A DNA stretch of 57,935 bases from a virus (Duplodnaviria; Caudoviricetes): positions 1 to 57,935 of the IMG/VR virus record IMGVR_UViG_3300025575_000016. One strand, written 5' to 3'. A program made the translations under genes and the position numbers. The stretch's first letter is position 1. Each line of letters opens with the position of its first letter. Below, piece after piece: positions 18,856 to 19,497 of this stretch. The notes beneath the pieces are model-generated. The model was not told the origin of the DNA. It did no database searches and saw nothing but the letters and a program-made list of their open reading frames with translations.

Positions 18856-19026
18856 AGGTTGATTTACCAACCTAGAATCTGAGAAGTACCTTTAAAGGAT
18901 TGATATACAAAGGCAACTCTCGATAATACCTCCAATCTATAAACGGTTGGGAAAAGATTGTGTGAGACTAGATTTTATCTTAGGTTGCACAATGATACAT
19001 CAAAGTCAAATGGCTTGGTAACAGTA
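18856..19026 (+). ncRNA. Putative Cas12f tracrRNA 1 (cognate to array 1)
   Basis: Hairpin AGGTTG-ATTTAC-CAACCT, whose loop ATTTA complements repeat end TAAAT; GAGAAGT...ACTCTCGAT stem; ATACATC (18995-19001) complements repeat GATGTAT; homologous to 19180-19336. Confidence 0.75.
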
Positions 19027-19169
19027 GTTGAATATTAACATGAGATGTATTTAAATGATATAGTTTTTGTATCATTGTATTGATCTGCATAAGTTGAATA
19101 TTAACATGAGATGTATTTAAATGTTACAGTTCTAGCAAAATTCCAACTTAGTGCATAGTTGATTTAAAT
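19027..19169 (+). CRISPR. Mini-array 1: repeat GTTGAATATTAACATGAGATGTATTTAAAT (clostridial type I-B-like); 2 full repeats, 1 internally deleted, 2 spacers
   Basis: Identical 30-mers at 19027-19056 and 19093-19122; spacers of 36 and 35 bp; remnant GTTGATTTAAAT at 19158-19169. Confidence 0.9.
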
Positions 19170-19179
19170 ATAAAAATAA

Positions 19180-19336
19180 AGGGTGATTCTCCATCCTAAA
19201 ATCGAGAAAGTGGATTGAATCTAAATCAATACTCTCGATAAGCCTTCTAGTCTTACAGGCTGGTAAAGTCTATACAAATGTGATATCGCAAGGCGTATAG
19301 GAATTTATACTATTTTAGAGCATTGATATTACTATA
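19180..19336 (+). ncRNA. Putative Cas12f tracrRNA 2 (cognate to array 2)
   Basis: Hairpin AGGGTG-ATTCTC-CATCCT, whose loop ATTCT complements repeat end AGAAT; ATCGAGAAAGT...ACTCTCGAT stem; AATTTATACTAT (19302-19313) is the exact complement of repeat ATAGTATAAATT. Confidence 0.8.
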
Positions 19337-19497
19337 GTTCTAATAGGACATAGTATAAATTAGAATGGTAATTTAATATGAAAAAGAATTAAGAGAATCA
19401 CGTTCTAAAAGAACATAGTATAAATTAGAATTAAGAGAAGCGGATTAACAGTTAATGTATTTTGCACATTCTAATAGAACATATCATAAATTAAAAA
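19337..19497 (+). CRISPR. Mini-array 2: consensus GTTCTAATAGAACATAGTATAAATTAGAAT; 3 repeats (last degenerate), 2 spacers
   Basis: Repeats at 19337-19366, 19402-19431 and 19468-19497; spacers of 35 and 36 bp. Confidence 0.85.

Follow-up and report, generated by a model that had tools for sequence, protein, structure and literature searches.

The virus record considered here over its full 57,935 nt (the window; ∼48% complete according to CheckV) carries, upstream of a single cas12f1 gene, two consecutive sets of elements, termed cassettes, each of which consists of a folded scaffold followed by a short CRISPR array. All of these elements lie on the + strand. Each scaffold resembles a trans-activating CRISPR RNA (tracrRNA) and is complementary at two sites to the repeat of the array that follows it. 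We consider it probable that a type V-F1 system carried by the phage has two complete guide-RNA cassettes in this stretch, upstream of one effector gene, with each tracrRNA docking its own repeat.

Scaffold 1 opens with the stem 1 hairpin AGGTTG/ATTTAC/CAACCT (18856–18861/18862–18867/18868–18873), which is recognized by direct reading, by the predicted fold and by R1, a covariance model described below. Loop bases ATTTA (18862–18866) are the reverse complement of TAAAT at the end of repeat 1, giving five of five pairs in a pseudoknot that corresponds to repeat:anti-repeat duplex 2 (R:AR-2). Stem 2 (AATCTGAGAAGT...ACTCTCGAT, 18877–18924) is likewise found in the fold and is the most conserved block in two alignments (A3 and A4); its GAGAAG strand is nt 26–31 of the scaffold. 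Folding also predicts stem 3 (18931–18951), for which 85.5% of cells are paired in an alignment of 13 modules, and stem 4 (18957–18993). The long anti-repeat GATACATC (18994–19001) then pairs with GATGTATT, nt 18–25 of repeat 1: ATACATC at 18995–19001 complements GATGTAT and the preceding G extends the helix to 8 bp including one G·U pair. This helix directly adjoins the pseudoknot bases of repeat 1. Array 1 (19027–19158) is composed of 30-nt repeats at 19027–19056 and 19093–19122, which are identical to each other, an intervening spacer (19057–19092) and a trailing guide-like stretch (19123–19158). Within that spacer, 19068–19078 forms a perfect 11-nt complement to 18989–18999 at the junction of stem 4 and the anti-repeat of scaffold 1, which is too short for targeting and possibly due to chance. 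A ATGGCTTAAATAC-like stretch is present 3–20 nt ahead of the first repeat in most cassettes with the window's type of scaffold, including cassette 1 (19009–19026) and those of the related loci (given L numbers) L004, L172, L087, L090, L092, L094, L005 and L174; cassette 2 of the window is without it. It could mark the leader end at which spacers are integrated.

Cassette 2 begins with the stem 1 hairpin AGGGTG/ATTCTC/CATCCT (19180–19185/19186–19191/19192–19197), which includes one G·T pair and whose loop bases ATTCT (19186–19190) are the reverse complement of AGAAT at the end of repeat 2, again with five of five pairs. Stem 2 (19201–19239) and stems 3 and 4 (19247–19263 and 19270–19300) are those of the predicted fold. 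The long anti-repeat has two segments. In the first, AATTTATACTAT (19302–19313) pairs 12/12 with 19350–19361 of repeat 2 (repeat nt 14–25), while the second (19315–19321) adds 7 bp with the repeat's 5′ end (nt 1–7, 19337–19343). Array 2 (19337–19497) contains 30-nt repeats at 19337–19366 and 19402–19431 and a degenerate third at 19468–19497, which is 80% identical and has lost the pseudoknot pairing. Its spacers lie at 19367–19401 and 19432–19467, and spacers are 35–36 nt in both arrays. The degenerate third repeat is followed at 19498–19533 by the ribosome-binding site and start of cas12f, a segment that differs from the gene starts of related phages by 1–2 mismatches over 18–21 nt.

The cas12f1 gene (19515–20855, + strand) encodes a protein of 446 amino acids, for which matches to AsCas12f1 structures, Pfam and invariant residues agree. 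When compared with PDB sequences, residues 14–435 match AsCas12f1 chains (8j1j, 8j12, 7wju and 8dzj) with E∼1e-84, and Pfam reports Cas12f1-like_TNB (PF07282) at 71.7 bits. The RuvC residues D226, E334 and D415 and the zinc-finger cysteines C383/C386/C405/C408 are invariant among the 28 homologues compared. The sequence identifies the predicted effector as an AsCas12f1-like Cas12f1 of type V-F1 in which both the D-E-D triad of RuvC and a zinc finger of CCCC type are present. A candidate identity as 'Cas12 hacker' (Cas12p, 500–700 amino acids) was rejected, this being a different family. The gene is the sole one of Cas12f/TnpB type in the record, with one match across the 57,935 bases, and it has 542 protein homologues at E≤1e-30, the named ones being mostly clostridial and the closest (P0002–P0008) sharing 71–84% identity with it. 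Neither Cas1 nor Cas2 was found in the phage record, which agrees with the description of V-U3/V-F1 systems in the portion of PMC7229846 available to us.

The two scaffolds share an order of elements in their predicted folds, in which hairpin 1 is followed by the GAGAA(A)GT...ACTCTCGAT stem, then by a pair of hairpins and last by the anti-repeat. Both modules use the same register: repeat nt 26–30 pair with loop nt 1–5, whereas the anti-repeat takes up the repeat bases that end at nt 25. A first-pass annotation of this DNA had drawn attention to the 6-bp hairpins with 6-nt loops (18856–18873 and 19180–19197), the loop–repeat complementarity, the second anti-repeats and the common stem and hairpins, and all of these were recovered, with both anti-repeat helices extending beyond the 7 and 12 bp originally noted. 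It had also likened the plan to that of AsCas12f1, and this comparison holds against the published single guide RNA (sgRNA), which consists of stems 1–4 together with R:AR-1 and R:AR-2 according to the accessible text of bioRxiv 2023.07.03.547593. As described there, stem 1 and R:AR-2 form a coaxial stack, R:AR-2 being in contact with the WED and RuvC domains, and stem 2 has a groove at G27–G32 and C63–C67. The window scaffolds show, by that description, the same six helices in the same order with the purine-rich GAGAAG strand of stem 2 near nt 27–32. Cas12f1 guide RNAs are more generally characterized by a long repeat:anti-repeat stem and a pseudoknot with a short stem of 5–7 bp (PMC11246509, in the part available).

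How much the window can say about these contacts by itself is limited. Across 157 aligned columns, identity between the scaffolds is 50%, and repeats 1 and 2 agree at 16 of 30 positions. Since the cassettes are homologous, the independent evidence for the pseudoknot within the window amounts to two positions that changed on both sides (TA to CT in the loop, TA to AG in the repeat). This covariation is small and suggestive, and the weight rests on relatives. A random 6-nt segment of this DNA contains ATTTA in 1.1% and ATTCT in 0.48% of cases. The fold of scaffold 2 has z=−2.71 (equalled by 3/200 shuffles), and the module-2 anti-repeat helix was reached by 4/5,000 dinucleotide shuffles. Neither this helix nor the loop pairing is marginal relative to chance. 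No Rfam family matches either scaffold. Each window scaffold is closer to scaffolds from other genomes (60% identity) than to its neighbour, and the cassettes are hence not a recent duplication; these identities indicate old paralogues or separate gains.

Relatives were collected from IMG/VR and from genome and metagenome contigs, with the best 80 of 486 loci kept in one fetch; the AsCas12f1 locus lies outside this set. Model R1, a covariance model of hairpin 1 and stem 2, was made with 20 scaffolds, among them both window scaffolds. Of 107 sources, 76 had scaffold hits at E≤0.01. These scaffolds lie upstream or downstream of cas12f, always on the same strand and always beside arrays. From 62 modules that could be parsed, 37 passed the filters (loop ≤8 nt, repeat of ≥28 nt recovered), of which 35 were distinct. 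Pairing between loop and repeat end in these 35 modules averaged 4.39, versus 3.22 (s.d. 0.14) when the repeats were permuted, and none of 20,000 permutations attained the observed mean. At least 14 different complementary loop:repeat pairs occur, namely ATTTA:TAAAT, ATTCT:AGAAT, ATTTA:TGAAT, ATTCA:TGAAT, TTTTA:TAAAG, CTTA:TAAG, CTTG:CAAG, CTCG:CGAG, GTATC:GATAC, TTTCA:TGAAA, TTCA:TGAA, CTCCA:TGGAG, CCTAC:GTAGG and TCTCA:TGAGA.

Among the 13 modules with the window's type of scaffold, 90.9% of cells are paired compared with 82.9% (s.d. 1.1) in shuffled sets, of which 0 of 500 attained the observed level, and with 30–44% when the partner strands were slid. In the pseudoknot helix, four of the five pairs changed on both sides and 95.3% of cells are paired. 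The anti-repeat helix has 85.9% of its cells paired, despite a 2-column misalignment of four rows at this place, one of which is window module 2. Relatives of module 1 carry the anti-repeat at the same place after stem 4, where it changes together with the repeat (anti-repeat/repeat states ACATC/GATGT, ACTTCTC/GAGAAGT, ACAACT/AGTTGT and ACATCC/GGATGT). Each scaffold thus has two sites of complementarity to its own repeat, and in relatives covariation is seen at both of them. The compensatory covariation that the first-pass annotation had postulated from the window's two modules is supported by these comparisons.

Several observations weigh against the proposed reading or limit the tests above. 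The filters of the permutation test removed 25 of the 62 modules, including that of L004 and window module 2, the latter with its repeat recovered only as a 19-nt core. The helices tested in the 13 modules were defined from those same sequences, which gives them an advantage over the slid controls. The loop rule is broken in L004 by a single internal mismatch (loop ACTTAG versus TTTAAAT) and in L172 by a single terminal one. The 8-bp anti-repeat of module 1, with its G·U pair, was reached by 224/5,000 dinucleotide shuffles. Taken alone it is marginal versus chance, and its support comes mainly from relatives, in which the corresponding position covaries. There are no more than two repeats in array 1. 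Loop 1 can still pair 4/5 with the end of repeat 2 (three Watson–Crick pairs and one G·U). When RNAduplex energies were computed between tracrRNA 3′ parts and all repeats, the cognate repeat ranked first in only 4 of 39 modules, with window modules 1 and 2 at ranks 29 and 13. Finally, no spacer target that would speak for activity was found in any collection searched: nothing convincing emerged from phage and plasmid collections, the window and related loci, or IMG/VR (exact 22-mers). The 19-nt core of repeat 2 does occur in five IMG/VR contigs, but as single matches without arrays or scaffolds that were taken as chance.

After RNAduplex failed to discriminate, the anti-repeat was scored as a helix anchored beside the pseudoknot bases. 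This gave a modest separation, with a mean of 7.3 for cognate versus 5.3 for non-cognate repeats, with the cognate first in 9 of 39 modules. Window module 2 ranks 1/39 by this measure and module 1 ranks 8/39, the latter being a further point on the unfavourable side. Within the window, cognate pairing gives 5/5 in the short duplex of both modules and 8 and 12 bp in the long duplex, and crossed pairing gives 3/5, or three plus one G·U, in the short duplex and a long-duplex score of 4.5. Each tracrRNA is therefore predicted to favour its own repeat. The first-pass annotation had gone further and regarded the two modules as probably orthogonal. The poorer crossed pairings agree with this, but in view of the pairing retained between loop 1 and repeat 2, orthogonality is a prediction only. 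Its suggestion that the natural pair would be useful for guide engineering was overstated. Both duplexes of AsCas12f1 have been found fully reprogrammable provided that pairing is kept, with the short pairing being essential (PMC11246509, Jiao et al., Nat Commun 2024, as far as its text was available), so the engineering value is modest, although the natural pairs fit the same design. Overall, the earlier interpretation is partly supported.

The arrangement of several cassettes beside one gene is not confined to the window. Two or three scaffolds were detected in 9 of the 107 sources (the window, L005, L087, L121, L187, L189, L190, L195 and L208), where the second scaffold of L087 was counted at E=0.015, and the eight loci other than the window have one cas12f match each. 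In L005, on the chromosome of Clostridium tagluense, cassettes with CTTA:TAAG and ATTCA:TGAAT are arranged in the same order as in the window. The two cassettes of L087 have ATTTA:TAAAT and TTTTA:TAAAG, and those of L121 have CCTAC:GTAGG and TCTCA:TGAGA. Four independent loci (the window, L005, L087 and L121) thus have two cassettes with differing, self-matched pseudoknots and one effector. At L005 (1607–2500), the scaffolds that precede the one cas12f of this bacterial chromosome belong to two very different classes, a long 'GGTAA' type and the type found in the window.

The doubled-cassette layout is a recurrent variant, the RNA design itself being already known. It was not found in the literature on natural Cas12f loci with two or more tracrRNAs or on phage Cas12f with mini-arrays, most of which was not searched at full-text depth. 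The uncommon part is that one miniature nuclease is accompanied by two or three private tracrRNA/array cassettes, and the natural pseudoknot pairs, at least 14 in number, form a catalogue, as do the scaffold parts that may differ under one protein. This suggests that cassettes, rather than single spacers, are the unit gained and lost by systems without adaptation genes.

We propose that a single transcript from the phage promoter at 18753 would fold into two units of scaffold and first repeat, and would then be processed into tracrRNAs and CRISPR RNAs (crRNAs). In each cassette, a tracrRNA of ∼145 nt (stems 1–4 and the anti-repeat) would precede a mini-array. The last 5 nt of the repeat would pair with the loop of stem 1 to form the pseudoknot (R:AR-2), the anti-repeat located after stem 4 would take up the repeat bases just upstream (R:AR-1), and the spacer 3′ of the docked repeat would serve as the guide. 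As each tracrRNA is on the strand of its array and directly upstream of it, the first repeat could pair in cis, and later repeats would pair in trans. A Cas12f1 dimer may load either cassette by means of the conserved scaffold core, because both scaffolds retain this core (stem 1, the pseudoknot and the base of stem 2), their differences being in the repeat-pairing segments. The anatomy, the effector family, the covariation of both contacts and the recurrence of multiple cassettes are the established parts of this reading.

A proposal compatible with two working cassettes concerns the origin of repeat 1, which matches the Rfam family CRISPR-DR3 at 50.2 bits (29/30 consensus positions). It is also identical at 29/30 positions to the repeat of a six-repeat array on a plasmid of Clostridium (L214), where a Cas3 gene lies at a distance of ∼3 kb, and the 13 repeat bases contacted by tracrRNA 1 are all identical in five of the six copies of that array. 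Cassette 1 might thus be a bridge to a type I-B system of the host, in that host Cas1–Cas2 would add spacers to array 1, or Cas6/Cascade would use it, and tracrRNA 1 would read repeats of this format, possibly including host pre-crRNA. The lack of Cas1 and Cas2 in the phage record is consistent with such dependence, and co-occurrence of V-F1 with I-B systems has been reported together with a proposal of borrowed type I-B adaptation (10.1101/2024.04.09.587696, in the part of the preprint available). However, the record is that of the phage alone, without host or I-B genes. The repeat-1 family also heads many Cas12f1 cassettes that have their own tracrRNA (L087, L089, L090, L092 and L174) and may be the native repeat of the clade. 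Furthermore, the leader of the plasmid array and those of the phage arrays have no motif in common at the same place, the stretch seen ahead of the phage arrays being absent from the leader on the plasmid. On balance the bridge is a possibility that we regard as rather doubtful. The plasmid has two arrays near Cas3, of 29 and six repeats (5816–7696 and 8804–9166), and it is the unit of the six-repeat array that equals repeat 1 in all but one base.

Equally tentative is a more general conjecture, in which guide cassettes are exchangeable units collected by Cas12f1 phages, with cassette 1 tuned to the type I-B repeat of the host, such that the phage nuclease reads arrays of host format, and cassette 2 acting as a private channel. 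The contacts of tracrRNA 1 would fit this tuning, being limited to the 13 repeat bases shared with clostridial type I arrays. If this were true, the phage could gain spacers through the adaptation machinery of the host or could load host crRNA precursors, and a link between cassette 1 and host type I-B arrays would represent a new kind of CRISPR traffic between phage and host.

Somewhat less likely still, and in our estimate improbable, is that Cas12f1 depends solely on the cassette adjacent to its gene, cassette 2, and that cassette 1 is a remnant, in decay or of poor function, of a cassette that was present earlier or was imported. In the protein tree (51 rows, with four broken open reading frames (ORFs), L019, L093, L099 and L186, left out) the window groups with L151 (support 100/100), the closest homologue with a locus (82% identical), and L151 carries repeats of the repeat-2 type directly upstream of the gene. 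The L151 contig covers only 220 nt on the upstream side of the gene, however, so a second cassette could lie beyond. The long anti-repeat of module 1 is the shortest in its scaffold group (8 bp versus 9–13), in addition to being marginal relative to shuffles, and the brevity of array 1 would also fit decay. Yet scaffold 1 retains every stem, the complete pseudoknot and two identical repeats, its R1 score is similar to that of scaffold 2 (56.8 versus 55.4 bits, both sequences having been in the model seed), and two matched cassettes are kept at other loci too. The import of cassette 1 from a distant Cas12f clade was considered separately and rejected, since the window's type of scaffold spans the whole clostridial clade of the tree.

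It is very unlikely that the elements are guide RNAs of a transposon (the omegaRNA or reRNA of TnpB) rather than CRISPR tracrRNAs. The homologues of the protein are named TnpB or transposase in databases, there is a Pfam match to OrfB_IS605 that remains below threshold (28.6 bits, cut-off 30.5), and the available portion of PMC12255294 describes stem 1, the pseudoknot and stem 2 as a core conserved from TnpB reRNA to Cas12f1, with the other stems diverging, and reports stem 1 plus the pseudoknot as conserved in Un, As, Cn and SpCas12f1. The window scaffolds share this core. However, the omegaRNA of TnpB (IS200/IS605) has no array and shares sequence with the transposon end as well as with the nuclease gene at its 3′ end, whereas the window scaffolds are upstream of cas12f1, do not overlap its 3′ end, and are each followed by a repeat–spacer array with different spacers. 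TnpB reRNA is moreover one continuous transposon RNA, while the pseudoknot strand in the window is supplied by a CRISPR repeat, either in trans or from the downstream array. The best solved relatives of the protein are CRISPR Cas12f1 enzymes, and the cassette is single-copy in the record.

A chance origin of the complementarities, owing to the AT-richness of the DNA, with the scaffolds being no more than common hairpins or leaders between genes, as might be argued from the frequency of ATTTA, the unexceptional fold of scaffold 1 (z=−1.40) and a count of promoter-like sites no higher than in shuffled sequences, is next to negligible given the permutation, shuffle and slid-partner results and the constant position of R1-detected scaffolds beside arrays.

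With two functional cassettes as the preferred reading, the system can be set beside those already characterized. It is similar to AsCas12f1 (type V-F1, formerly V-U3; PDB 7WJU, 8J12 and 8DZJ) in its homologous effector and its lack of adaptation genes. Unlike AsCas12f1, it has a single gene accompanied by two cassettes whose repeats differ, tracrRNAs located directly upstream of the arrays on the same strand, 30-nt repeats of the clostridial type I format, and a temperate phage as carrier. The reprogrammed AsCas12f1 tracrRNAs (PMC11246509, in the portion consulted) reveal the same freedom of duplex sequence under kept complementarity that is seen here in nature. However, they are engineered and come from cell-free assays, while the window pairs are natural, lie side by side in one locus and are known from sequence. 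Virus-borne orphan mini-arrays rely on the Cas proteins of the host, whereas array 1, with its repeat of host format, has a matched tracrRNA and an adjacent effector.

The genes in the neighbourhood of the cassettes encode ribonucleotide reductase, a Gam-like protein, guanylate kinase, RusA and a serine integrase. From the integrase, the carrier is a temperate phage, and the region is one of replication and nucleotide-metabolism genes. A promoter-like site (TTGACA, 17 nt, TACAAT; 11/12 consensus matches) is located at 18753–18781 on the + strand, although the number of such sites in the region is not above that of shuffled sequences. The site falls within one copy of a repeated 22-nt phage motif, T[TA]GACAATTNAATAATAATATT, that has 16 copies in the window (4000–57886) versus 0.01 expected. 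These copies (for example at 16892, 18753, 20853, 21421 and 53037) are on the coding strand of the neighbourhood, and the motif is probably a promoter or operator of the phage itself. The next copy, at 20853–20874, comes after the cas12f stop, such that the CRISPR cassettes are bracketed, and no terminator-like site was found on the + strand between the promoter motif, the cassettes and cas12f. The 18753–18781 site is a likely start for a single transcript across both cassettes and cas12f.

A GC-rich hairpin (GAGGG, 8 nt, CCCTC) followed by TATAAT is present at 18816–18839, between the promoter motif and scaffold 1. Among two peat metagenome runs, contigs of the probable source run gave complete coverage and those of the other run scattered pieces. 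In these runs, contig joints from 18774/18854 to 20854 skip the whole cassette region between motif copies. They are covered by only 20 nt per side and may represent a relative without the cassettes or an effect of the repeated motif on assembly, and no inference is drawn from them. One copy of the 22-nt motif, at 11883, is within the ribonucleotide reductase ORF. An ORF on the − strand at 26056–27114 matches phage GIY-YIG and homing endonuclease families.

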